DNA of 64,000 bases, taken from NCBI RefSeq assembly GCF_964194025.1, contig NC_134468.1, positions 3,224,001 through 3,288,000 of the forward strand, written 5' to 3'. The stretch comes from Convolutriloba macropyga. Lineage: Eukaryota. Positions 20,001-39,489 of this stretch are shown here, piece after piece (within the stretch, counting starts at the first letter, position 1; each line of letters starts with the position of its first letter). The notes below the pieces were generated by a model. That model did not search any database and was not told the origin of the DNA. It worked only from the letters and a program-made list of their open reading frames with translations. The position numbers and the translations under genes are program-made.

Positions 20001-23000
20001 TTTATTGGTTTGTATGTAAATTCTGTGTGTGGTCTCTGCACTATACTATCTAGGATCACATCTGTTCTAAATTAACTGTGTTGATAAATTTATTGGTTTA
20101 TATACAAAACACATGTACCTGTTATCTTTGTTCGCAAGCAGGTTCACGTAACTAATGGTTTGTAGAAGTATGGTTTTATTTCACTATAATCTCAAGTTAC
20201 ATACGTATAAAAATCTAAAATGAACAGTCTCAAGTACGCCGTGGGGCGTGGTTGAGACTGTATTTACCAATCACTTGGAATAAATTTAAAAAATGATGAC
20301 ACTGGTTTGATCCCAACTTGCCGCGCATCCTAATTTTGTAGTTATTAACATTATGTTGACTGGATGTGATAAAACAAGTTGCCCACCACGTCTTTTACTT
20401 CTTGAAAAGACACTCAGTTTCGATATTCCTGTTTCGACATTTCACAAACTGAAAAGCGTTTGGTCAGGGTAACTTTAAAAATTTGCGAAAGAACCGGAAC
20501 ATATGTTCTAAAGTTGTTGAAGAAAGCGGCGAAGGATCACAAATTCGAACATAGAGTTTTGTTAATTTAATTTGGAAGAGTTTGGAAATTTTGTCAAAAA
20601 AAACTGAAAAAATACGTGAAGCTGCAACGCAGGATTCCCCATCAAAACCAGCCCCAGTAAAGAAGAGAAACTTGATCAGTGTAGTAAACATGATGGAGGC
20701 AATGTTTGAGCGCTCCCCCTACTTTTTCAAAAGAATTCAAAAACAGTTCAAGTTTTTAATTGTTGACGAAAAGCCAAGATTAACAGCATTGAATAACTAT
20801 GCTGTTTCATCATTTTGATTTTGAATTTTGTTAGTTACCAACTGACCATTTTCACGTTCTGATTGAGAATGCAATCGATGTTGAGACCATGAAGCCAATC
20901 AGAACTTTTGCGGTTCCCTGTCTCTTCACTACTTTCAGACACTTTTTTTCAACTTCAACGAGTAAGGAGTTTAAAGGAGATACATTTTAAAAATTACAGC
21001 TTTCAGTTGACTTTAACAACAGATCTGGAGACAAAATTGATACCGCAAATGTACGCAAGCAATTCCTTTTCAACAGCGGCAACAAAACTACCAAAATCAA
21101 CAGCAGACGGTTTTGAGTCAGTGTTGCCTTTTCTATCAATAATATCATTAAATACAAAACATGGTCCTATTATAAAAATTGAACTGCGGTGAAGAAACAA
21201 TTGATTTTGCGTTATGATTTTGTTTGCGGCGGATGGGAGAGGTGAATGGTTTTTTGGAGTCCTTTGGCAGTGAACTTTGTTCCATCCGTGTCGTAAAAAA
21301 GTAAATTGAGTGAAAAACAAGATTTTGAAGTAAAAATACGAATACCTGGAAGAATTGGGGTAACTGAATTTTGTAAGCGGAAGTAAACAAATGACTGAAA
21401 TAACTTCAAGAATATCCTGGATATATCAAGCCAAAGAATATTATGTAAAAAACGAGAAAAATGTGAACAAAAGACTTCGTAGGCAGTAGGAACTTATAAA
21501 AGACTCCGTTTATCAGATGAAAATGGAGTCCTCATAATGACGTAATAATTATATCGTTTCTATTTTCAGTAAAATCACATGAGTTCTCCATAAAAAGTGC
21601 CGTGGGGATGAGTATAGCGAGAGATAAAAGTGACTTGTCTTACTCTTAGTATTTATATTGAAGAGCACCTGTAGTTCCAGAAAAGAGTATTTGGATAAAA
21701 TGATTGACTCTCATCATTATCATTTGAATTTTCTTCGATCGGAGGTAGAATAAGGTCTTCAAAATAGGGCAAATTGAATTGGCTTCTAATTTTTTAGAAA
21801 ATGAGCCAGCATGTTTGGCATGTTTGGAGAACAGGTTTTCTACTCAACAAACACCGTAGTGATTTCAGTCACGGGAGTACGGGAACAAAATACTTTTATT
21901 GTCTTTCAACGGGTAAAACTCTTGTTCTTTTCAAATTTTTCCAATGTTTTGAAATGAAGTTGGGAGAGAAAGCAGTGAATTGTTGACTTCTTTTTGGCCA
22001 GGTGGAGGTTATGATTTCTACCTGTACATATCCTTCGGAAGTGTGAAGCCAATAGTCTGTCTTTTTATTATTACACTACTGCAATCTACATCAAATGATA
22101 ATTCCAATTTGTTATCGGTTAATACTGTTTTGAATTTTGATGCTTCGATGTTAGGAGCGTAATCTAAGCGTGAGTGAAGTGTTAAGAAGTGTAAAGAAAA
22201 GATGTTGAGCGAAGTAAAGGAAGAATTGGAGCATTTTGCATATTTCAGACCACTTATGTTGAGCTCAGATAAAACACAAATTGAATCGATTTTGTTTCTC
22301 AGGATCAACAAAATCAAAAATCAAATTTGACCGATTATATGATTGGATAAAGAAAAGCAAGAATTGGTTGTTTTCAAAATGAAATTAATTTCCTATTTGA
22401 CAATTGGGAAACAAAAAGTTCAGTTTAAAGCGACACAGTAAAATGAAATTCTAAAAAAGAAATTAAACAAAAATACTTTGAAAAATTCAAAAAGTGGAAA
22501 ATGGAAAAGAAGAAAAATTAAATAACCCAATTTTTATAGAAAACTTTATGTCGAAAACGACATTTTTCAATCAATTTTTATCTAAGTTAAACAATATTTT
22601 AAAAATTTAATTGAACAAAAATCGCTTCAAGACATCAAAAACTAAAAATCTGAAAAATCTATTGTTTCGTTTGTAAAAAATGAAAACACCAATTAATTGT
22701 TTAGAATTTTATCTAAAAAGCGCCAGTTTTTAACCATTTCTGCGCATTTAAATGAGAAAAAACCACATTCTAAAATTTTAATTGAACTAAAAATTGCTTA
22801 AAAACATCGAAAGTTAATAAATCGAAAAACGAAAATAATCAAACGAACATTTTTGGGGAAAAAATTTAAGTTAAGAACGACAATTTCGCATCAAAATTTA
22901 TTCAAAAGAAAGAAAATTGTAAAAGCGGAAAATGAAATAAAGCAAAAAATCTGTGACTAATAGTTTAATCATGCGATCTTGCAAAGAAATGAGTCATCCT

Positions 23001-23862
23001 ATCTAATTCATCATAAAAAACATTATCTTCGTAATACCCTTCGAGTGAACAACTTGGGTATTGTGCTGTGCGGTACGTCTTTGCAAAACACGTAAGCCGT
23101 TCTTAATTTTCAATGAGTCATATTAATTTTTCATTGAAGGGTTATCTTGACAATCTTCTTTGTGTGAACAGCTTTGGTATCATGCTGTGAGTTTAGTGTT
23201 TTGAAATTGTTATTAGTTAAGTGTAAAATAGGAACGGTTGATTGACTAATTTGTTTTTAAGGGATTAGCATGGTAATTCTTTTCTTGTGAACAGCTTGGG
23301 TATCATGCTGTGAGGTACATCTTTGGAAATTGACATTATTAAAGTAAAATATGGGAAAAGTAAATGACCTTACTAATTTGTTACTAAGAGATGATCTTGC
23401 TAATCACCTTCGTGGGAACAGCTTGGTTATCATGCTGAGGTGTTAGTCTTTGGAATTTGACATTAGTAAACTGTAAAATGGGAAAGTTAAATGATATTAC
23501 AATTTTGTTACTAAGAGATTATCTTGCTAACCCCTTTCGTGTGAAGAGCTTGAGTATCATGCTGTCAGGTACATTTTTGAAAGTCTTTAAGCCATACGTA
23601 AGTTTAATAAATTCGTCCTATCTCATTCAACAATAAAACGCTACCTAACTAATCCCTTTCGTGTGAAGAGCTTGAATAAGTCGTACGTTACTGTACATGA
23701 GTCCTTTTAAAATATTATTAAAGGTTTATTTGCTCATTGTTTTTGTGTCAACAGCCTGAGTACCATGCTGTGAGGTTTTCTTTGGATTTTAGGGGAGTAT
23801 GGGCTGTCTGATGTTAAAACATAGGTATATCTTTTTACCCCCTGTCCTGGTCACGATATACT
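17021..23862 (-). mobile_element. Probable Polinton/Maverick-like remnant: C2H2 zinc fingers plus PolB-type N-terminal region (17021-17750), unassigned ORF remnants, subterminal repeats, possible terminus at 23862
   Basis: ORF 17445-17687 has C2H2 fingers (CKYC...HEHRFH, CCIC...HMKTWH, CRSC). It is followed by ETAFNGTLQSY...NLAEFM and IASNGSGWVLEKV (~17022-17060). The right end reads AGTATATCGTG on the minus strand (AG...CT-type terminus). Confidence 0.45.
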
Positions 23863-26800
23863 ATTGTCCGCTAAACTGGAAAACGATTCCCTCGAGATGA
23901 TATGTCACACATGGCAAACATTTATATGTGGGCACCAAAAGAAAGCACAATCCTGCATCTGTTTTGTGATCGTGTGAAAACTGGTTGTTGTCTCTCAGAA
24001 CAGAATTTCTTTGAAAATTCGGTTTTCCTTTTTCACAAAAATTGTTCCTCATTCGTTAAAATGAACAAGTTATGTCCAACGGTTCTCATTTCAAAATTGA
24101 AAAGCTAAATTAGGATTTGCTCTCCCCTAACTCTGATTGAATATTGGCTAACCCGGGGACATTCCAGCACAGCACTACGTCAAAATAAAGCGTTTTGTAT
24201 TCTTCAAAACCATTAACAAGTTAATAATGCTAAAAACAGAACCAGCTGAGAAAAATGTAAAACAAAAAAAAATACAGCATTAGAAAACAAACAACTAACG
24301 GCAAAAATAGATGAGTCAAACTAACATCCTCCCTTCTTCAACCACAGCTCCCATTGAAGCATTATCAATTTTGCGACGCCTAAATGTCCGTGAGCCTCGA
24401 ATGCAGAGGATGAGTGGGGATGAGTATAGCGAGAGATAAAAGTGACTTGTCTTACTCTTAGTATTTATATTGAAGAGCACCTGTAGTTCCAGAAAAGAGT
24501 ATTTGGATAAAATGATTGACTCTCATCATTATCATTTGAATTTTCTTCGATCGGAGGTAGAATAAGGTCTTCAAAATAGGGCAAATTGAATTGGCTTCTA
24601 ATTTTTTAGAAAATGAGCCAGCATGTTTGGCATGTTTGGAGAACAGGTTTTCTACTCAACAAACACCGTAGTGATTTCAGTCACGGGAGTACGGGAACAA
24701 AATACTTTTATTGTCTTTCAACGGGTAAAACTCTTGTTCTTTTCAAATTTTTCCAATGTTTTGAAATGAAGTTGGGAGAGAAAGCAGTGAATTGTTGACT
24801 TCTTTTTGGCCAGGTGGAGGTTATGATTTCTACCTGTACATATCCTTCGGAAGTGTGAAGCCAGTAGTCTGTCTTTTTATTATTACACTACTGCAATCTA
24901 CATCAAATGATAATTCCAATTTGTTATCGGTTAATACTGTTTTGAATTTTGATGCTTCGATGTTAGGAGCGTAATCTAAGCGTGAGTGAAGTGTTAAGAA
25001 GTGTAAAGAAAAGATGTTGAGCGAAGTAAAGGAAGAATTGGAGCATTTTGCATATTTCAGACCACTTATGTTGAGCTCAGATAAAACACAAATTGAATCG
25101 ATTTTGTTTCTCAGGATCAACAAAATCAAAAATCAAATTTGACCGATTATATGATTGGATAAAGAAAAGCAAGAATTGGTTGTTTTCAAAATGAAATTAA
25201 TTTCCTATTTGACAATTGGGAAACAAAAAGTTCAGTTTAAAGCGACACAGTAAAATGAAATTCTAAAAAAGAAATTAAACAAAAATACTTTGAAAAATTC
25301 AAAAAGTGGAAAATGGAAAAGAAGAAAAATTAAATAACCCAATTTTTATAGAAAACTTTATGTCGAAAACGACATTTTTCAATCAATTTTTATCTAAGTT
25401 AAACAATATTTTAAAAATTTAATTGAACAAAAATCGCTTCAAGACATCAAAAACTAAAAATCTGAAAAATCTATTGTTTCGTTTGTAAAAAATGAAAACA
25501 CCAATTAATTGTTTAGAATTTTATCTAAAAAGCGCCAGTTTTTAACCATTTCTGCGCATTTAAATGAGAAAAAACCACATTCTAAAATTTTAATTGAACT
25601 AAAAATTGCTTAAAAACATCGAAAGTTAATAAATCGAAAAACGAAAATAATCAAACGAACATTTTTGGGGAAAAAATTTAAGTTAAGAACGACAATTTCG
25701 CATCAAAATTTATTCAAAAGAAAGAAAATTGTAAAAGCGAAAAATGAAATAAAGCAAAAAATCTGTGACTAATAGTTTAATCATGCGATCTTGCAAAGAA
25801 ATGAGTCATCCTATCTAATTCATCATAAAAAACATTATCTTCGTAATACCCTTCGAGTGAACAACTTGGGTATTGTGCTGTGCGGTACGTCTTTGCAAAA
25901 CACGTAAGCCGTTCTTAATTTTCAATGAGTCATATTAATTTTTCATTGAAGGGTTATCTTGACAATCTTCTTTGTGTGAACAGCTTTGGTATCATGCTGT
26001 GAGTTTAGTGTTTTGAAATTGTTATTAGTTAAGTGTAAAATAGGAACGGTTGAATGACTAATTTGTTTTTAAGGGATTAGCATGGTAATTCTTTTCTTGT
26101 GAACAGCTTGGGTATCATGCTGTGAGGTACATCTTTGGAAATTGACATTATTAAAGTAAAATATGGGAAAAGTAAATGACCTTACTAATTTGTTACTAAG
26201 AGATGATCTTGCTAATCACCTTCGTGGGAACAGCTTGGTTATCATGCTGAGGTGTTAGTCTTTGGAATTTGACATTAGTAAACTGTAAAATGGGAAAGTT
26301 AAATGATATTACAATTTTGTTACTAAGAGATTATCTTGCTAACCCCTTTCGTGTGAAGAGCTTGAGTATCATGCTGTCAGGTACATTTTTGAAAGTCTTT
26401 AAGCCATACGTAAGTTTAATAAATTCGTCCTATCTAATTCAACAATAAAACGCTACCTAACTAATCCCTTTCGTGTGAAGAGCTTGAATAAGTCGTACGT
26501 TACTGTACATGAGTCCTTTTAAAATATTATTAAAGGTTTATTTGCTCATTGTTTTTGTGTCAACAGCCTGAGTACCATGCTGTGAGGTTTTCTTTGGATT
26601 TTAGGGGAGTATGGGCTGTCTGATGTTAAAACATAGGTATATCTTTTTACCCCCTGTCCTGGTCACGATATACTATTGTCCGCTAAACTGGAAAACGATT
26701 CCCTCGAGATGATATGTCACACATGGCAAACATTTATATGTGGGCACCAAAAGAAAGCACAATCCTGCATCTGTTTTGTGATCGTGTGAAAACTGGTTGT

Positions 26801-27224
26801 TGTCTCTCAGAACAGAATTTCTTTGAAAATTCGGTTTTCCTTTTTCACAAAAATCGTTCCTCATTCGTTAAAATGAACAAGTTATGTCCAACGGTTCTCA
26901 TTTCAAAATTGAAAAGCTAAATTAGGATTTGCTCTCCCCTAACTCTGATTGAATATTGGCTAACCCGGGGACATTCCAGCACAGCACTACGTCAAAATAA
27001 AGCGTTTTGTATTCTTCAAAACCATTAACAAGTTAATAATGCTAAAAACAGAACCAGCTGAGAAAAATGTAAAACAAAAAAAAATACAGCATTAGAAAAC
27101 AAACAACTAACGGCAAAAATAGATGAGTCAAACTAACATCCTCCCTTCTTCAACCACAGCTCCCATTGAAGCATTATCAATTTTGCGACGCCTAATTGTC
27201 CGTGAGCCTCGAATGCAGAGGATG
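21602..27224. repeat. Tandem duplication, 2812-bp unit (21602-24412 and 24414-27224)
   Basis: ORF pairs are offset by exactly 2812 (21801/24613, 23861/26673). Only about six substitutions seen between copies. Confidence 0.97.
23030..23780. repeat. Degenerate ~120-125-bp tandem repeat, ~7 units, core gtgaacagcttgggtatcatgctgtgagg (duplicated at ~25842-26592)
   Basis: Core recurs at ~23046, 23164, 23288, 23412, 23539, 23661 and 23746. Confidence 0.85.
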
Positions 27225-27633: not shown

Positions 27634-28575
27634 TGTGACTGTTCGGACATTAGTGGGAGGGATACAAGTAAGAGAAGCTGATGGTAGTCTGAAAACGTAT
27701 GATTAACTAACAACTGAGTAATTCAGGCATGCGTGTAAATTAACAAGGAAACATATGGTTACCCTAGAAAGAGAAAAGTATACCACCTCTCAGAAGTGAT
27801 TAAATGGGAGATTGAAGTGTGTGGACCATGAATGGTAGGACGAATAAAACTACTAATTATTTTAAATAGAGCAAATCTTAGATTATTGATTTGATTATTA
27901 GTAAAACAAGTATTTGTCGAGCCAATAGTTTTTGAGACGAAGACGAAAAGAGAATGAAATTTGTCAATGATTGTGTTTGTTAAGTTTCTCTAGTTTTTTG
28001 AGAAGCCATTTGCGTTGTGTCATTAAAACCAGCAATTACAGTTATAGTGTGTATTTTTTTTGTCTGAACTGTTGAGGGGTTCTAGTCAAGACCCCGTCGG
28101 TAGTACATCTGAAGGAGTTTATGGTTGCTTTTGGCTGCACAGTAGCCACCAGTGGGCCATACTCTATATCTTTGCCTAACTGAGCGTGGCACTTGCTTAA
28201 AATGAAAAGTTAGAAGTTAATTTATTCAGTAGATCAATGTGAAGAAATGTTGGTTTAAACAAGTTAAAATTAAATAGAGTGGTTGGCTCTGATGTTAGGT
28301 TTGGTGTTCAATGAATGAATTCGATCCTCGCTTTGGTCGGTACCCAATATCAGTTCTTTCATTGTGGTAAATTACCCAAGTCAACAAAGGTATGTCAGTT
28401 GCGTTGATTTGGCTCGAAGCCCGAGCTTTGTCTAATCAAAGATCTATTTTTTCTAACACCTATCACCATTGTGTCAGCCATAAATCAGTTGATAAATCAA
28501 GTTTTAAACTAGATCTTTGACATTGAAACCCAAGGTTCTAGTACATCTTTTTTATATATACGTCTGACACTGGCA
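27634..28575 (-). repeat. Putative 3' LTR of the Gypsy element, preceded by a polypurine tract at 28576-28588
   Basis: Minus strand reads aaagagagggcag (PPT) then TG... at 28575. Opposite end TGTGACTGTTCGGAC at 27634 is a loose inverted match to TGCCAGTGTCAGAC. No 5' LTR is present for confirmation. Confidence 0.5.
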
Positions 28576-28704
28576 CTGCCCTCTCTTTGCGAGAATAAAG
28601 TGCAACACACTCTCAAAGTCAAACGAAATGTTCATTCACTGATCTTGTTATATGAACGTCTTGCTGTAAAAAAAATTAGTATTTTCATATGTAAAGCTTA
28701 TTTA

Positions 28705-29596
28705 TCAGTTTCCGCTGTTCATAAATTTTCCTGCCTTGTCAATTCCAAATATGTTGTACGCTTCTCTCGCCGCATCATTTGTCAGAATTTGATTTGCCCG
28801 GATGATGGTCTTGAAGAACCCTTTGTCTCCACCAGCATCAGGGTGCTTCAACAGGCTCAATTTGTGATAGCGTTTCCTGATTTGATCTTTTCGAAGCAGA
28901 ACTGAACTTTTTATCAACGGAATCTCATATAGCGTAGCAGTCCGGTTCATAATAATTTTGTTTTAATTCTCGAATAAAGATTTCTCAGTGGCCTTTGTTT
29001 TAGAGTTTTTGTTTCTAGGAGAGGGTTTTTGTCGAATCTTTTTTCCGCATTCTTTGGCCAAATACTGGTCGTAGTTTTTCCAGCTGCTCGAGCTCTGACC
29101 GCAATTGGTCATACATTTTCTCAAATTCTTAAATGATTTTCCCCTTTTTAGCAGCATTGACTTTCAAATCGGCCAACTTTTGATTTAATACCTCTATAGA
29201 ATGCTCCTGATGAGCATTTCTGGCTGATGCTGCCTTTAAGTTTTCTCGTTACCCCTCACAATGAGCGCTCCATTTCCCCAATACTTCTTTTGTTGCTTCT
29301 GTGGTCTTGTTGCAATGGTTTCCAGTTCTTGTCAAAGCTCAACGAGGTCTTTTTGAAGTGAGGAGTTAGTGCTCTTCATTTTCTCTAACTGCGAGGACTG
29401 ATTTTGCAGTTCCACTTCAGTCTTCAGAGCACGCAACCGAATATTGGCGGATGCCAGAAGTTCTAGTCTAGAAACTTTCCAAGACCGCTACAGACAGGAT
29501 TCCATTCGGTACATTCCCGGAAAAATCTCGGCAACAGTTTTCCACAATTCTAGCTTGTAGAACACATCATTTTTGCTTCTAAAGTTTCTCGACATT
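28705..29596 (-). pseudogene. Disrupted intronless ORF: coiled-coil region plus C-terminal J (DnaJ) domain (28705-28950)
   Basis: TLYEIP...KDQIRKRYHKLSLLKHPDAGGDKGFFKTIIRANQILTNDAAREAYNIFG has J-domain helices and the HPD motif. Upstream frames are E/K/L/Q-rich with stops. Confidence 0.75.
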
Positions 29597-29639
29597 TTCA
29601 ATCTTGAACTCAATTTTTTTCCTTTTTTCCTGTTGTCTT

Positions 29640-30222
29640 TTGGTCTCGAACTCGAAACGTATCCTTTCTTCTGTTTTTTTTTTTGGTCTTGAACTCAAGA
29701 CAATTTTTTTGGTCTTGACCTCGAAACGTTGCCTATCTTTTTTCTTTTGATCTCAAACTCGAGACGTTCCCTTTTTTTGGTCTCGAAAGACAAAATTTTT
29801 TTGTTCTCGAACTCGAGACAACTTTTTGGTCTCAACCTCGAGACGTTTCTTTTTTCTTTTTTGGTCTTGAACTGAAGTCAATTTTTGGGTCTCGAACTCA
29901 AGAAGTTTCCTTTCTGGTTTTTTTTTGGTCTGGAACTCAAGACATTTTCTTTCTACTTTTTTTGGTCTCAAATTCGAGACGTTGCCGTTTTTTTGGTTTC
30001 GAAAGACAATTTTTTTTTGGTCTCGAACTCGAGACAACTTTTTGGTCCCGACCTCGAGCCGTTTCTTTTTTTTTGGTCTTGAACTCAAGTCAATTGTTTG
30101 GTCTCGAACTCGAGAAGTTTCCTTTCTGTTTTTTTTTTGGTCTTGAAATCAAGACATTTTCTTACTACTTTTTTGGTCTCAAACTAGAGACGTTCCCGTT
30201 TTTTGGTCTTGAATTCAAAACA
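29640..30222. repeat. Array of ~19 imperfect palindromes GTCTCGA-AC-TCGAGAC separated by T-tracts; higher-order period ~213 bp
   Basis: Direct reading. The variant order repeats at ~29749, 29963 and 30175. Confidence 0.9.
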
Positions 30223-30339
30223 AAGTTTTTTTGTTTTTTCTTTCAACAATTGATTATTTTATGGACCCTTTTTCTTCAACCATTTTCTTTTGTTCTCGGC
30301 GTTCATTCTTTAATTTGATTAAATGATTATACATACGTA

Positions 30340-31935
30340 TTCCCATTACGGAGTCAAGATTCCGCAATAGTTGTTAACAAGACGCTCCATTAATAATTAA
30401 TCCTAAACATATTAACAATTTAGGAAGTAAATTTTTACAACTTGAAAAATGAGGTAGAGTGCTAAGAATGACACAGCAATTTCCTTCGTTTTTAACCAGA
30501 TGTATAAGCACTCAGTTTTTAATTCCGAAAAATGGTTATTTCAGTTGCTAGAATAATTTCCTGCTCGTTCCAGTGAATAAAATTTTTATGACTGTAATTT
30601 TCATCCGAATCTGTGAATGCTTCCCGACTGATAATTTCACGACTATTGTGGCGAAATGTTCAATTTGAAATGTTCAAATGTGGCAATTTGAAACTGTTTT
30701 CATCGTGATGTGGAGAAAAAGCTGCTGCGATGCAGGTTTTCATCATTTACATTTAAGTTACAATTGAGCGACCACTGATATATCTCACGATTGAATTTAT
30801 TCAGCCGTTTCTCCGTTTTGTTTAAAACTGCCGTCTTCCTTTTGACAAAATTCGATTACAGCCAGTTGCATGAAACTGTTTCGTAATTATGATACAAATT
30901 TTGTAATAGATCTGTAATCATGATACAAAATGTAAGGGTGTGCATATATCTAATAGAAGAAAAGTTCTGACACTCTAATAACAAAGGAGCTTCTGTGCAA
31001 AAAGGAATTGTTGTTATTGTTGCAACCAGCTTGGCACATTTATGAAAATTTAAAACAGATCCTGTTTTTTCAAAAAATTTTATTGCAAATTTTTCATATT
31101 TGCTTTTGTGTAAAATTTTTCTTCTGTTAAAAGTGGTCGTGTGGTTACCAAAAATTTTTGCAGGGTCATTCTTATGAAACTGCTTGATCGTTTGACATGT
31201 TTGCTAATCTTTATTTTCAAAAAAATTTTTACTTATTTGTCTTCGAAGTGTGTGGCTTTGATGAAAACAGTTTTCCAGAACCGTAGGGGATCCTTAAAAT
31301 TTAATAGATTTCTTTGTAGCAGCTTTCCCCAAATTGTTCCGAAGTTAATTTTTGCACTAATTACCACATTTCCTATAAGCTTTTCTCCTTTAGGTGAAAC
31401 CCACTGCACAGGTTGTTCATACATAGCGCCTTCGTGTCAATTTTTTTGCCATGAAGCTTTGACTATGCACTTCTACATAAAAGGTTTTGCTGTCTTGTCG
31501 TGAAATCGTTTTAGTTACCGACCTGATGACTTTATAAGTCCTATCCTCAAAACTTGGTATGAGAAAATTCTTCTTCTGTCAATTGTTTCTGCAAGTTCCC
31601 TCAATAAAAGGGAATACTGATTCAAGTAGTTCTGAAATTTCTGTGAGAAAAATGACATCGTCATATACGATTCTCTTTTAAGCGCAGACACTTTATATAC
31701 CGCTTCATACATGCAAATATTTAGTTTTATCTCAGGCTGAACCTCAGTTTATATTATTTTTTCCATTGTTATTGGTACTCTGATTTTTCAATCACAGTTT
31801 GTACTGTGATCTAGAGAATAGATCTTTGCTGACACGGTATTGTCAAAACATAACCCTATAACTTGTTACATGGTGATGGAGAAGCAAAAAAAAACTAGCA
31901 ATGCCAGATACAGACATAGTGATACTCCCTCATAC
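30340..31935 (-). pseudogene. Probable env-like glycoprotein ORF remnant of the Gypsy element
   Basis: Starts MGVSLCLYLALLVFF (signal-peptide-like), then Cys-containing GLCFDNTVSAKIYSLDHSTNC, and ends in hydrophobic LPKLLICLGLIING. Lies directly 3' of integrase. Frameshifted. Confidence 0.5.
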
Positions 31936-32299
31936 GATCCTCCGGAAAAACTCGCCTTTCTTTTCAATTCTATTATCTCTTTCTAAATTTTCCTGAAACC
32001 AAACATCATCAGTTTTCTGACTGCTAAAGTACTCTTCATCTTGCTCAGTAAAGTAATTCTTTGAATTCTCAGGCACCAATTTTAATGGGCTGCTACTTTG
32101 TAGTCATTTTTGGTGCTTCGGGATCAATATTAACCTCTTCTTTAGTACATTTTGTTTTACTACAAGATGTGTGTGGTTTTTTCTCTGGTTTTGGACTTTT
32201 TGATTCTGCTGCTTTTTTTAGCGTACTCTTTAAGTTTCAACAAACTGCACCTCCTCTCTCGGCAACTTTGTTTGCCTTCTCAAGCTCTTTAGAGGTTTC

Positions 32300-35200
32300 T
32301 TACTCTGATTCTTTAGCTTCATTCTCAGACGTGTCATTTGTAACATTTAATGAATCGTTAGCATCCTCAGCTTCAGATTGATTTTCTGTGTTTAGATTAC
32401 TTTCACTGTCTTTGGAAGATTCCATTTCTTTTTTATCATCAAAGTCTGAGCTGTTCAAATCAATTTTTTCTGCCCATTTACTGTTTTTTCCCTTTTGCTC
32501 AGGAGCGAATGACTTTTCTCCTGTTTTATGCTTTTTCAGTTGGTCATAATGGACCTTCCTCCTCTTTTTATGTTCTACTTGGAAGTTCAAATTGTTTAAA
32601 ATTTCAACTATTGTGTATAGCTCTATATAAAAAGAAGTCAATTTTCTTGTTTTTTTTTAAAGTTGGGTTGGAAACTAACATTTCTTCGCCAACCTTATAG
32701 CTCGTTCAATACCTACTGCAATCATAATAGGTCTTCTGGCGTTATTGTTTGAATCCATATGTTCTCGCATCAACTAATCCGTTTCCTGTAGTTTGTTTTT
32801 TCATTGTGAAAACACAGGGACTTGATATTGCATATATTTTGGTGTGTGGTTTGCTATAGATGCAGTATATAGGTGGGAACAATGGAAAACCCAGTACCAC
32901 ATATGCTGGGCTGTATTTTTTACCTTAGGGATTGATGTTCGATAGACCATCATCGCTAAGGGCAGAAATTTGGTCCACTCATTTTGATATTGGCCTATTC
33001 ATTTAGAGAGACGTTCATCTATTGTCCGATTTTTTCTTCTTTCAATCATCGCGTTCCGTTGTGGTTGTTAGGACGTTATTGATGTCTTCTGAGTTCCTAG
33101 TTCAATGCAAAGACTACGAAATAGTTTTGACATAGAGTTCGACCCTTGTTCACTGTGTACTTGACAGTGTTCAGCAAACACTCTTGAGACGGTTTTTGCC
33201 TCTTAGTTGGGTAAAGCTACCGCTCCATAACACTTACTGAATTGATCACCGAGACGCAAAAGGTACTTGTTTCCCTGAGACTCGTGAAATGGATCCATGA
33301 TATCAAGAGATACTTGCCAAAATGGTTGTCTAGGTTTCAATTTTGCGAGTGAATGCCGATGTTAGTGCCTTAGCTTTTTAGGGCACATGTCACAGTTTTC
33401 AATACAGTTTCTTACGTCCCTCCTCATGCACGGCCAATGAAACCTTTCAGAAGCCTTCTGGTACGTTTCCTCAATCCGAAAATGACCTGCGCTAGGAGAG
33501 TCATGCAACAGTTCAAGCACGTTGGACACTCTCTACCATTGTACAGCCATTTGGTAAACGGTCTCCTCAAAGTTAGGTTCTGTTTTGTGTTTACCATACA
33601 AAGTCCCTTCTATGAGACAAAGGTTTGTACACTGAACGCAGTATTTCCATAATTCTTTGGATGCTCCAATTTTTATTTGCCCTGTTCCTGTTTTTTGTTC
33701 AGAACCCAGGTGCATATTTCTCTGAGTAGCGTGTCATTTTAATGCAAATCTCGTAGTTTTACTCTCTGCAGTTTTTCTAACTGCTAACCTCAACTGACAT
33801 AATCGTAATGATTGCTCTGCGTCTATCGCAATAGCGTTAACAAAAGCTGTTTGTTCATCATCATCATCAGTCAGTTTGCGCGACAGACAGTCGGCGAGTG
33901 GCGTTGCCTGCTGCACTATGCTTGATGTCAAAGTTAAATTGCCCAAATTTCTCTGTCCATCTTGCAACCATACTGTCCGGTTCTTTAAAACTATAGATCC
34001 AGTCACGAGTCTGCTGGTCCGTTATAATTGAAAAGTTCTCACTAAGTAACAAAATTTTAAAATGTTGCGTAAAATGAACAATTGCAAGTAATTTGGCTTA
34101 GTTGCTGAACAATATTGCTGAGTTTTACTCATAGTTTTGCTAGCATATGCAATAACTCTATTCTCCGGTCCTTGTTTCTGGGTAACAATTGCTCCATTTC
34201 TTGTCAACGAACCATCCGTAGTTAATGTTGATATATACGGATCCCTATTATTTGTATATTATAAAACTGGGACATCCAGAAGCCTCTTCTTTAACTCCGT
34301 TACCGCATTTTTGCACTTTGGATTTCAATTAAATTTTTTTGACATTTTCAGTAGCCTGTTAATAGGTCCTGCTGTTTTTTCGAAACCCGGAATAATTTTT
34401 CGATAATAGCCCACAAGAGCTCGAAAGGCCCAGACACCTCTCAGGGAGGATGGTTCTTTCATTCTCTCTGCCGATCTTACTTTCTCTGGGTTGACCTCGA
34501 CCCCATTCTTGGATATAATGTGCACCAAGAAGCTGACACGCTCTTAGAAAAAACTGCATTTTGATCCCTTAATCTTTAATCCATTCTCCGCTAAACGTTG
34601 GAATACCAGTTCTAATTGTTTCATATGTTCGTCGAAATTTCTTCCGAAAACGATAACGTCATCTAGATACACTAGAGCCGTTTCGTAAGAGAGGCCAGCA
34701 AAATCAACCTCACTATAATTTGAAAAATTCCCGGTTCAGAGGCTAGTCTTTTAGGAATACTTTGCCAGTTATACAGGCCCAGAGGCGTTATTAAAGCTGT
34801 TAAATTCTGACTCTTTTCTTCGAGCGCCATCTGGAAGTCACCCGACTGGAGATCTATGGGGACTATTGTAATGTTTTTCCCAATTTACCCGCAAAAAGGT
34901 TGGTTTTTTTCTGGTGTTGAAAATACAGTCAAAATTATATAAGACTTCGTTGCCCAAGAAACAAGGCGTTATCTCATTTTCGGTGACTAAAAACTCAAGT
35001 GTTATCTCAGATGTTAATTTTTGAAGTTGGACTTGAATAGCTGTTGACTTCTTTACAGGCACTTTTCCATTGCTGGCAGCTATTATTTTTTTATTGCACA
35101 CTCTGATCTGGCTCATTTCTCCCAGCTGTTGGTAGAGTGTGTCGCTTAAAATGTTAACACTACGTCCTCTATCAATTAAGACCATTATCAATATGTCTTT

Positions 35201-35772
35201 TATCAATATTTTGGCAATCAAGGCCTCCAATGGGCTGTTTCCGCCACGCACAATTTTTACGTAGATTGCTGAAAATGAAGCCCTGCTATCTTCAGCTAGT
35301 TCTCGTTTAAACACGGGCAATTTCGTTTGAAATGATTTGACTGCCACATTACCTAGATGCAAGATTTCTCTGACAGCAACGGCGACATCTTTCTCTCAAA
35401 GCTCACCGCTGTATTTGATTGCTCAGAACGACTCTCGTCCGTCCAATCTCGGCTTCTGATCTCTTCTCCTTGTGTTGGTGATCGCGCTCTTCTATCGTAT
35501 ATGGCTCGTCTATTATCAATTCTAATTCTTTATAGCTATTATAGTTTCTATTTTTCTATCTCCGGTTTCTCTAGAATGTCGCTCACCTCCGGAACCTCTT
35601 TGGGCCTCGACCCTTGCAATGAAAACTTGATTATCTTGCATGTTAGATTGGTTAGTCTATAATGTTTACACTAAATCATTAATCGAATTAAAGAGTTGAT
35701 TGTTTTCATTCGGATGGATGGCAGAAAACCGCGGCTCATTATCTTCCTCCTCAATTCATTTAGGGTCCAGGT
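32300..35772 (-). mobile_element. Degraded Gypsy LTR retrotransposon gag(3' end)-pol: protease, RT, RNase H, integrase
   Basis: Protease VLIDRGRSVNIL (ORF 34838-35362); LVYLDDVIVFG (~34645-34677); HIISKNGVEVNPEKV; RVIAYASKTMS; RFHWPCMRRDVRNCIENCDMC; FWQVSLDIMDPF; KVHYDQLKK. PR-RT-RH-IN order. Confidence 0.9.
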
Positions 35773-36165: not shown

Positions 36166-39100
36166 TTTTTTCTTTGTTTATACAATAAAAAAAGGACCGT
36201 GTACAACATCCGGCAACGATGGATGTAGGTCGGAACATAAGGGATGATGAGTAGCATTTAGACGGATGCTGCACTACAAGCTGTTCCCCTCCAGACAGTG
36301 TAAGGACGGCCCAGTCACAAAACTAACTAACANNNNNNNNNNNNNNNNNNNNNNNNNNNNNNNNNNNNNNNNNNNNNNNNNNNNNNNNNNNNNNNNNNNN
36401 NNNNNNNNNNNNNNNNNNNNNNNNNNNNNNNNNNNNNNNNNNNNNNNNNNNNNNNNNNNNNNNNNNNNNNNNNNNNNNNNNNNNNNNNNNNNNNNNNNNN
36501 NNNGTATGGAAGGGTTGAAATAAAAATAGGATATCAAGGAATAAGCAAAGGAAAAAAAAGTTAAGCAGCCAAACACTCGGTGCAGCCTTCCCTCCTTCAC
36601 GACAGCGCTAATTGAAATCTCACTGAGAGCACGAGACTTGAGGGCGCGAAACCCCATTAAGCAGAGAACACAGCTCCTCAGAAATTCGAAGCTGATTTTC
36701 GTTCGGATGTAGCTTATAGTGTCGGCGTACGGCTTTCCGCGTTTTTCGCTGATCTTGTTTGCGAGTTGTTTCATAGCGGGCAATAATGATGGCCCAGCAC
36801 CGCTGGAGCAAGCAAAAACCCGTGCGTTGAAACTGCTGTGTTCGGTTTCGCGGATTCGCTCTTCGTACTTATTTCGATTGATTCTCTCGTGATATTTGTA
36901 AGAATCTTTTATGTTCGTTGGGCAGCCCTTCGCGTGAGGGTTGAAAATCTTCACATCGCAAAAATGCCATTAAAGCGGGAGCCCCACAGACCGTTTGCCT
37001 TGATGTCCAGTCGAGCGTCGTCATCAGTAGTGGTGGAATTACTCGAGAAAATTTCTCGATCGCGCGACTGAAGTTTTGGCTTTATCTCGACATCGTGGCA
37101 AATGTCATCCATCAGGTTTGCAAACACGTCTTTGATTTTGTTGTGTCCTAGGTCGGTATACTTTCTGTGGCGCAATGTAGGGCATGATTGAGGCTAAATT
37201 CTTTCACGCATGGGACTATAGCTGGCGTGTTCTTTGCTTCCCAGGTGTAGCGAGGTGCTATTCCATCACGGAATTCAGTCTTCGTGAGGTCAAAACCATG
37301 TTTTGATAACGGAAGCGCGTTAAACCAGCTAGATGCTCCTTTCTCCGAGGCCAGCTGGATTGTATACTTAATTTCTGGTAGATTGTTTTCGATTCTGGAT
37401 TTTTTTCGAGATGAGTTCACGTTGCATGTCTGCTTTCTGTCTGAGACTGATCTTGGTTTGATCTAATTCACATTGTTGAATTTCGAATGAATCATTATTG
37501 AATGACGCCAATGGACCTGAGAGTTCAATTGATTGCTCATGACTTTTAGAAGGATCTTGTGGGAGGGTGATGTTAAGCCCACCCATTCTGAGAGGGAGAG
37601 AGAAAAGTTCTCTTTCCTCTTGGATTATTTCTTTGCCGACGATGTTCGGTGTGACTCGGCCAAGTCGCTCCTCCATCTTGTCCAGAACCCCGTCCATGGA
37701 GGGTGTAGTACGCGAGAAGAAGCTCAACTTCTGTTGAACCCCCTTCGTCAAACATGCATAGGCATTCTGGGGAGAGATGAGAGCAAACTGACCAAGTCTG
37801 TCCAAACTTTCTGTGTATTCAATTTCTGCATCTTTCAGGAAATACTTACTGGCCTCAGAGCTACCGATAACCGATCCCAGGACTCGAGCGCCGTGTGTGA
37901 TTTCCACATTAGTGCCTGAAATCACAGTTGACGCTTGGCACTGGCCTCCTGGCTTAATTATCAACTGACACTTCGGAGGATTGACAAGATATCCGTACTT
38001 GGGACCAAGCTGAATGAGCTTGTCGAAGAGTGTCAGATATCTTTTAACTTACCGACGGCGCTACTCGTAAGCATACCATTTTTGTGTCAAGGAGTCATTG
38101 TGAAGTCTTGATATTAGGGGTAGGATTGGAGTTCCATAGCTTGCCATCGCAAGGGGATCGCCTTGTGTTGTACCTTCCTGAGACAGAATGGTCGAATTAT
38201 CGATGTAGAGAAAAAACGGATGGCTATAGGAATACTGTATGGCAATATGCAATGATGGGCATAAGGTCTTCACGTTCTCTAATGCTGTTCTTCTATTCAG
38301 CACGTTAATTGCGTTTTTGGCATCAATTAGTAGAATTGCTTCGTTTTCGGGATCATCAAAACTGTGGCGAAGCGAGTGTATGGCATGTTCTATGCCGCAT
38401 TTCTGGCCCAGGCACAGCTTCACGTTTCTACCGAGGGATGTTAGATCTTGCCTGATGCAGCCGACGATTATGTGACTGGTGATGCGACGCATTACTTCAC
38501 CAATAACAATAGGTCTCAATCCTGGACATTTATCCAGAGCCACTAGTTGACATCCAATGTATGCAATCAAATCATCCAGTAGTATTACGGACGTGGCCAG
38601 CCTCTTAGCAAACTTGGCAACAAGCTTGCACATGTTCATGGAGGTTTGCCCGAAAGCAGAAAGTAGTCTACGCCAGTCATCGGCATCGAGACCTGAAGGC
38701 CCGGCACTGCCATGAGTCTTCATTGCATTCTTTCGAACGAGCCTGGCACTGATTTTTTTAAAACAGCGGCGTGGTAGGGAAGCGTGCTTGGATGTTCGCT
38801 CTGAATGCAGTTGGGCTCCGAGGGTTGCCTTTCAGGATGTTTGTTGCGTAAGATCTCGAGGACCGGTCTACCGTCTATGAGATCGGTAGGAGCGAGCACG
38901 CCGCTTTTAAGCTCATCCGAAATAACGCGAATAGCAATACTGATCTGACCACGAAAGATGAAATCGTTGAGCATCTTGAGGTCAGAGTGCTGCTTTTTAT
39001 TCCTTGAGTTCATTCTCATTTGGATTGCCTTCGCTTCACAGAACAGTTCCGAGAAGTTGCAGCTGTGCTATTCACGCAGTCTACGCTTCATGATCTTTTT

Positions 39101-39489
39101 GTTTGATCCATCGTCCGTGTTCTTTGTTCGACTAAGAGTTAAGTGCGGAAGTATCATACAGAGGGTCAGAGATATATCGGATCTATCCGTGTTTACGGAA
39201 ATCGGGGAGAGGACACTGTGAAGGGCTTCGGCGAACTGTTCCCCTGTCTTGTTTCTACTGAGCGTGGAGAACGAGGGCTTCCATTTGACGACCTCGCGGT
39301 ATATTTTGCGCACTGTTACCGCGTGATGAGGCTGGAATTTGTCCCAAAATTTATCTAATGGTGCGGCGACGGAACGTTCTGGGTCGTGCGATGTTGCAGG
39401 ATCTATTAGTGCAGTGTCGGGAACGGTCTAATCATTGTGTGGTGCCGGCGTTGCGATTGCTGTTTCGGTGGCTGCGGTGACCGCAGAGC

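Follow-up and report, generated by a model that had tools for sequence, protein, structure and literature searches.

The locus described here raises the question of whether a gene for a DnaJ (J) domain protein can be a working part of an env-bearing retrotransposon. The window is the entire 64,000-nucleotide stretch of Convolutriloba macropyga DNA that was analyzed. A preliminary description of it had proposed a Gypsy element with an env and a chaperone-recruiting accessory gene, arranged on the minus strand in the order gag, pol, env, palindrome array, J-domain reading frame, polypurine tract, and LTR. This order was borne out by Pfam, tblastn, and the sequence itself. The element is a decayed, 5′-truncated Ty3/Gypsy copy on the minus strand with the following features.

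35299..35757, minus strand: 3′ half of gag, decayed (tblastn with the 351-residue CCHC gag of copy L025; family homology begins at 35757)
32120..35338, minus strand: pol, with protease, RT, RNase H, and integrase; broken (Pfam, tblastn)
30245..32003, minus strand: env remnant, class III (gB/chuvirus-type) fusogen by Pfam and fold; broken (Pfam PF24664 in the frame of other copies, fold search)
29638..30243, minus strand: palindrome array in the env/ORF4 interval, 16-nt units with A-tracts between them (sequence)
28705..29565, minus strand: ORF4 remnant, predicted to comprise a barrel, a coiled coil, and the J domain at its C-terminus (Pfam DnaJ, tblastn; structure model of the family-B protein, with fold search)
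28576..28588, minus strand: polypurine tract (sequence; two-LTR copies have it at the same site ahead of their 3′ LTR)
28138..28575, minus strand: 3′ LTR, ~438 bp (79–85% alignment to the LTRs of the nearest copies)

The 5′ LTR and the first half of gag are missing from the window copy. Pfam recognizes the protease, RVT_1, RNase H, and the integrase C-terminus in pol, where ~790 bp are absent at 34857, as judged from a jump in the alignment with a two-LTR copy; another ~290 bp are absent from env near 31068. The J-domain reading frame of the preliminary description survives in part. The J portion, which carries the motif HPDAGGD and matches Pfam DnaJ with an E-value of 4.9e-9, is open over 85 codons (28962–28708), but the coiled coil and the remaining upstream portion are interrupted by stops, frameshifts, and a ~47-nt deletion at the 5′ end. 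The polypurine tract lies 117 nt past the ORF4 stop, with the LTR starting at 28575, and this short spacing is as originally described. The LTR had been drawn down to 27634, and this boundary must be revised: family homology ceases at 28131–28144 or earlier in 19 of the 19 other loci reaching it, and the segment 27400–28137 has zero matches in the family-A copies examined. The palindrome array contains 12 units within three mismatches of the 16-nt palindrome, with none elsewhere in the window. The number of units varies from 0 to 16 in other copies of this family (family A) and is zero in 20 of 20 loci of the second family described below (family B), and the array is thus specific to family A.

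The architecture of the family is LTR-gag-pol-env-ORF4-LTR. Other copies have paired LTRs of ~431 bp that are up to 99.8% identical, and when the family-A copies were extended, an LTR pair was found around gag-pol-env-ORF4, or deletion forms of it, in 16 of 20. The relatives of the J domain therefore sit between env and a 3′ LTR with a matching 5′ LTR, and in three samples they were linked to Gypsy pol at 16/20, 17/20, and 16/20 loci. Inspection by eye showed a 4-bp target duplication without mismatch in 7 of the 13 family-A copies with both flanks visible. The primer site is complementary to the genomic tRNA-Ser(GCU) (52 pattern matches, none in the control). The LTR termini are TATA in family A, which departs from the textbook CA, and TACA in family B. 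The open frames of copies L024, L025, and L069 contain, by Pfam, protease, RT, RNase H, and integrase in this order with gag upstream, and the assignment to Ty3/Gypsy is drawn from this domain order and the Pfam models. A few copies keep ORF4 with little else; copy L121, for example, consists of an LTR, leader, ORF4, and LTR. For the two families together, ~1000 first-look candidates were obtained in the genome per J query, which places ORF4 among the most repeated protein-coding modules of this genome.

Family B, from the same genome, has the same four genes in the same order at 16 of 20 loci. The identity between families A and B is 77% for RT-RNase H, 62% for integrase, 31% for env, and 27–29% for ORF4; within ORF4 it is 46% for the barrel and 37% for the J domain, with no match in the coiled coil. 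Proteins with the same architecture are present in other assemblies, where they are known as proteins alone. Searches of this genome for the families of P0256, P0100, and P0124/P0074, with 126–150 candidates scored for each, found no close copies (no match at an E-value of 1e-40, none at 1e-35, and best identities of 36% and 38%), and these proteins therefore probably belong to other genomes. One metagenome scan with P0089 gave no relatives among 358 pattern matches. In a tree of J domains, 10 of 10 ORF4 sequences, all with an intact HPD, fall on one side of a 100/99 branch from 24 ordinary J proteins. As candidate donors of the J domain, the closest ordinary J proteins in this tree are attached by weak branches.

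In other copies, env is an open frame of 677 codons that matches Pfam PF24664 with an E-value of 1.8e-10, with a second env match at 2.3e-14. The top fold matches, obtained with a weak model (pLDDT of 43), were thogotovirus Gp, GP64, herpes gB, and chuvirus G. The env sequence had no match among the sequences of solved structures. Its hydropathy, the sole measure used, reaches 2.07 N-terminally and 1.56 C-terminally in family A, and 1.25 and 2.18, respectively, in family B. Pfam and the fold search together identify env as a class III (gB/chuvirus-type) fusogen in fold, which would make the element a gB-type errantivirus.

ORF4 encodes 280–308 residues with a hydropathy maximum of 0.5, and no signal peptide or membrane segment was found in the hydropathy scan. 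The prediction is of three parts: first a Tudor/PWWP-like barrel, then a long coiled coil, and last the J domain. The family-B model has a pLDDT of 88.7 and a pTM of just 0.36, so the relative placement of the domains is not fixed by the model. In this model the J domain aligns with that of ERdj5 (Z of 10.1, rmsd of 1.9, 69 aligned residues), and residues 2–51 align with a PWWP domain (Z of 8.4, rmsd of 1.6, 50 aligned). The barrel also matches Tudor domains at a Z of 7.7–7.8, with Tudor and KOW matches tied within 1 Z, and there was no Tudor or PWWP match to ORF4 in Pfam. The barrel has the SH3-like five-part fold of the Tudor/PWWP (Royal family) readers, but Z values of 7.7–8.4 are close to the level that a common small fold can reach. 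The Pfam DnaJ model scores above its cutoff in family A, family B, and five outside proteins. ORF4 fits the class C J-domain proteins: its modeled J fold has four helices, and HPD falls between the second and the third. The family-A protein has no Met ahead of the first barrel strand. The C-terminal SH3 domain of the element's own integrase was considered as the source of the barrel, which it resembles by eye, and is improbable as far as shallow profiles can tell (profile–profile probability of 0.2% and no HMM match in five pol proteins).

The selection on ORF4 was determined by comparing each of 24 older copies, the window copy included, with one young copy. The dN/dS values between subfamilies were 0.09 for the J domain, 0.16 for the whole of ORF4, 0.19 for RT-RNase H (17 copies), and 0.40 for env (19 copies). 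For the window J domain the value was 0.13 (95% interval of 0.05–0.27), and the shifted-frame controls gave 1.7–1.8. ORF4 is under purifying selection, which is strongest in the J domain. The HPD motif was lost in 8 of the 24 older copies, as expected for dead copies.

The location of ORF4 inside the LTRs, its occurrence in two distant families, the purifying selection, and the retention of HPD argue that it is a functional Hsp70-recruiting accessory gene, as had been proposed from the window, and we assign this reading a probability of about 0.88. It is very improbable that ORF4 is a passively carried piece of a host gene or an independent insertion that does nothing for the element. In favor of this view, J domains abound among host proteins, the ORF4 of the window is broken, and copies such as L121 retain little besides ORF4. 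However, the gene occupies the same place in two families whose ORF4 proteins are only 27–29% identical, its frame is open in many young copies, and its J domains form one clade; passive carriage is largely refuted by dN/dS values far below 1 when the frame-shift controls are near or above 1.

How the accessory gene would act can be stated with less assurance. We give about even odds that ORF4 is a soluble adaptor through which host Hsp70 reaches some complex in the element's own life cycle, with the RNA–Gag particle as the likeliest target. The protein may be made from a spliced subgenomic RNA; on reading the sequence, there is a consensus-like donor in an ATG-free leader and there are AG acceptors before env and ORF4. 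Retro-copies of spliced RNA were sought among deletion joints: none begins at the leader donor in the copies examined, nor does any among the joints listed from three contig sets (15 of ~300), and neither result carries information. The barrel would then bind the target, the coiled coil would space or dimerize the protein, and the J domain would stimulate Hsp70, which would be steered to the RNA–Gag particle.

It is also possible, with a smaller share of the probability, that the barrel docks on the small-RNA or chromatin silencing machinery and that the J domain misdirects Hsp70 or uses it to disable that machinery. The resemblance of the barrel to PWWP and Tudor domains fits this proposal, but SH3-type barrels are common and serve many jobs. 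Host J proteins and Hsp70 do serve transposon silencing: depletion of Droj2/Hsc70-4 derepresses transposons in fly ovaries (10.1101/423210), and the plant protein SILENZIO represses transposons with HSP70 (PMC8616336). ORF4 also changes faster than pol between the families, and the synonymous divergence between subfamilies, 0.93 in the coiled coil and J domain versus 0.29–0.49 in pol, hints at module exchange. Against this proposal, selection on ORF4 is purifying, with the J domain the most constrained, and pairwise tests found no excess of amino acid change. Rather unlikely is a role like that of T antigen or other viral J proteins, in which ORF4 would remodel a host complex of general use, such as one of the cell cycle, the stress response, or the membrane traffic that serves budding or entry. 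The T antigen of polyomaviruses recruits Hsp70 and acts mainly on host complexes, a precedent that favors a host target over one in the element's own cycle. ORF4 accompanies env in both families, sequence searches gave weak matches to the J domains of SV40 large T and small T (E-values of 0.005–0.008), and the viral fold library contains many J proteins. However, ORF4 was found in 0 of 12 loci of other class III env-bearing Gypsy families of the same genome, so this env type needs no ORF4, and ORF4 has no further T-antigen feature.

The J domain of T antigen is N-terminal, whereas that of ORF4 is C-terminal, behind the barrel and coiled coil. Viral J-domain proteins (polyomavirus T antigens, baculovirus BJDP, and giant-virus and phage DnaJ) resemble ORF4 in joining a J domain with HPD to other modules, but they belong to DNA viruses and the present element is a retroelement. 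With the HSV/gB-type errantiviruses (Chary and Hayashi, PMC13524379) the element shares the gag-pol-env order, a PR-RT-RH-IN pol, a class III env, LTRs, a tRNA-Ser primer site, and many near-identical copies; the fourth gene, for the J domain, sets the present element apart, and the likeness is one of features. A captured nonstructural gene is likewise found 3′ of pol inside the LTRs of bdelloid rotifer retrotransposons (Rodriguez et al., PMC5408684). Those ORF3s are described there as typically expressed from spliced RNA and encode a DEDDy exonuclease, a GDSL esterase, or a coiled-coil or membrane protein, with no mention of DnaJ in that paper; ORF3 stands in the place of env, whereas ORF4 is additional to it. 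In the literature as covered by titles and the beginnings of abstracts, with few subscription papers and with Repbase and Dfam outside the scope, no retroelement-encoded J domain was found.

Invertebrate errantiviruses have been described as three-gene elements, and a conserved fourth gene gives this lineage the look of the complex retroviruses, which encode accessory proteins. We suggest, tentatively and as a less favored possibility, an old and widespread lineage of env-bearing retrotransposons that wields its own Hsp70 co-chaperone against silencing, in which the barrel docks on piRNA or chromatin complexes that Hsp70 then dismantles, and in which Gypsy elements captured a J domain more than once. 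The J domain is a module of known and assayable biochemistry. ORF4 offers a direct entry to the question of whether retroelements supply themselves with chaperone adaptors, be it to assemble particles or to counter small-RNA silencing, a process that involves host J proteins and Hsp70.

The element in the window is a decayed copy of a Ty3/Gypsy family, designated family A, with the organization LTR-gag-pol-env-ORF4-LTR, where ORF4 is a fourth gene with a predicted barrel, a predicted coiled coil, and a C-terminal J domain.

35757-28138, minus strand: decayed family-A copy, in the order gag 3' half, pol, env, palindrome array, J-domain gene, polypurine tract, LTR
28575-28138, minus strand: LTR of this copy, its extent taken from matches to family copies

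This order is the one proposed in the preliminary description, which had also carried the LTR down to 27634; the extra stretch below 28138 has no match in the family copies. All of the genes are broken; pol has lost ~790 bp and env ~290 bp, and the window contains no 5' LTR for this copy. The J-domain ORF described previously is open for its final 85 codons only, and this part was recognized as Pfam DnaJ (E = 4.9e-9) with the motif HPDAGGD. A DNA search returned no relative above 81% identity, and the copy is a member of an older burst whose copies show near-neutral differences (dN/dS 0.5-0.9). Broken frames at 36274-39427 and about 37.7-48 kb, which we take to resemble non-LTR retrotransposon RT, lie within a ~5.14 kb tandem duplication (98-100% identity), and an exact tandem duplication of 2812 bp at 21602-27214 contains 119-127-bp repeats.

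Using the J peptide as the query, 994 first-look candidates were obtained in the C. macropyga genome, and all 150 that were scored matched. Among 20 matches picked for long open frames, env was found upstream in 19 and pol in 16, a gene being counted as present when at least 10% was covered. A second sample, not picked for open frames, consisted of 20 of the 52 DNA matches closest to the window ORF4 plus LTR, a query in which the ORF4-LTR linkage is inherent; env was present in 18 (two with merely 10-11% coverage) and pol in 17. The sole locus with neither, L121 (7114-9073), is a minimal LTR-leader-ORF4-LTR copy with its joint off the leader donor. LTR pairs (87.7-99.8% identity) were located in 16 of 20 family-A copies extended toward both ends. 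The J-domain relatives are linked to Gypsy pol and lie between env and a 3' LTR with a matching 5' LTR, as had been supposed. Full LTRs are ~431 bp, elements are mostly 9.5-9.9 kb, and young copies share 94-99% identity. Of the 13 copies with both flanks visible, 7 show a perfect 4-bp target duplication, as judged by eye. The primer site matches the complement of tRNA-Ser(GCU) genes in the same genome; 48 clustered matches to the 3' end of this tRNA occur in a 100-kb span of contig C10 (2701272-2801477). Since contigs from three public runs (same organism, one study) cover 30 of 30 bins of a full copy, the element is not an artefact of one assembly.

Family B, with the same four genes, was exposed by a query with a distant outside homologue, which detected a 283-codon frame at many sites in the genome. 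Its J part yielded 1131 candidates, and 141 of the 150 scored have E <1e-40. At 20 family-B loci, gag/pol and env were found upstream, in order, at 16, env alone at one, and neither at three. Family B has a single gag-pol frame, a 689-codon env (PF24664), LTRs of ~617 bp, and the same primer site as family A; ORF4 begins, at a clear Met, 16 nt beyond the stop codon of env. A short hairpin-like motif ahead of the polypurine tract is common to both families. The palindrome and A-tract array (window 29638-30243) has 0 to 16 units in different family-A copies, and family B lacks it. The two families are 77% identical in RT-RNase H, 62% in integrase, 31% in env, 46% in the ORF4 barrel, and 37% in the J domain. 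Because gene order is shared at such divergence, ORF4 is older than the divergence of these two clearly distinct families and has kept its position. Tandem family-B ORF4 repeats occur at C10:58954443-58963035 and, on contig C1, at C1:28061642-28064706.

The family-A env frame (677 codons) matches PF24664, the Monjiviricetes fusion protein (E = 1.8e-10). The env model is weak (pLDDT 43), and its best fold matches are exclusively class III fusogens: thogotovirus Gp, baculovirus GP64, and herpes gB top the solved structures (gB at Z 7.6, although with an rmsd of ~20), and chuvirus-like glycoproteins top the viral models. The "env-like remnant" can thus be classed, from PF24664 and a fold search with this weak model, as a class III fusogen. 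Family A shares the layout of the HSV/gB-type errantiviruses, as set out in the available part of that survey (Chary and Hayashi, PMC13524379). The ORF4 profile matched none of 12 loci from other PF24664-env Gypsy families in the genome, whose RT is ~30% identical to that of family A where measured; at 7 of the 12, a different, unrelated long frame follows env. A 284-codon open frame at L122:7654-8505 (likewise in L123, L124, L130, and L133) follows an 898-aa class III env in one Gypsy family, and a 611-codon open frame at L125:7517-9349 (likewise in L126 and L129) follows a 769-aa class III env in another; neither frame has a Pfam match. A search of papers, largely open-access ones, turned up none describing an LTR retrotransposon with a J domain of its own, and the available parts of the errantivirus survey (PMC13524379) and of a rotifer paper (PMC5408684) do not mention DnaJ.

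Selection was assessed from pairwise counts between natural copies, older copies against one young copy. The median family-A dN/dS values, from pairs made non-independent by this common reference, are 0.09 for the J domain (24 copies), 0.17 for the coiled coil, 0.22 for the barrel, 0.19 for RT-RNase H (17 copies), 0.31 for integrase (18), and 0.40 for env (19). The J part of the window copy gives 0.13 (interval 0.05-0.27), with shifted-frame controls at 1.7-1.8. For ORF4 and J in the most distant family-B copies, dN is 0.06 versus a dS of 0.36-0.41. The coiled coil-J module may have been exchanged between lineages, since its synonymous divergence (0.93) is well above that of pol (0.29-0.49).

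The family-B ORF4 protein, modeled confidently with 16 relatives (pLDDT 88.7, pTM 0.36), is predicted to contain a four-strand barrel (9-42), a single helix of ~145 residues, and a J domain. The predicted J part aligns with the J domain of ERdj5 (Z 10.1, rmsd 1.9, 69 aligned). The barrel aligns with a PWWP domain (Z 8.4, rmsd 1.6 over 50 residues), and Tudor and KOW domains tie with this match. Because ORF4 has no hydrophobic segment, its product probably resides in the cytosol or nucleus, and folding of Env in the ER is unlikely to be its job. Proteins of the ORF4 layout with 28-41% identity, known as proteins alone, are found in other public assemblies (P0069, P0074, P0089, P0115, P0124, and P0256-P0259); close copies of the four tested were not found in the C. 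macropyga genome. P0124 carries an unrelated tandem repeat ahead of the barrel. Across the relatives, the barrel and J domain are kept, and the coiled coil is of variable length. In a tree with no true root and a bootstrap not fully settled, the ten ORF4 J domains included, each of which has HPD, fall on one side of a 100/99 branch from 24 ordinary J proteins.

A consensus-like donor was read in the ATG-free leader, with AG acceptors ahead of env and of ORF4, which suggests that both are made from spliced RNAs. Spliced RNAs are likewise stated for the ORF3s of bdelloid rotifer LTR retrotransposons in the available part of PMC5408684. Since the first Met of family-A ORF4 falls after the first barrel strand, the start may involve a splice, a non-AUG start, or a shortened barrel.

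J proteins of this sort link a targeting domain to Hsp70. We infer that ORF4 is a targeted co-chaperone, whose J domain would couple the targeting part to Hsp70. The best guess for its target is the RNA-Gag particle of the element itself, to which we assign a probability of about 0.5. The main rival, a possible but less favored role in countering silencing, is raised because host J proteins and Hsp70 take part in transposon silencing, according to the available parts of two sources (10.1101/423210; PMC8616336). A general host target ranks third and is improbable. ORF4 is a real, conserved accessory gene in a gB-type errantivirus lineage.
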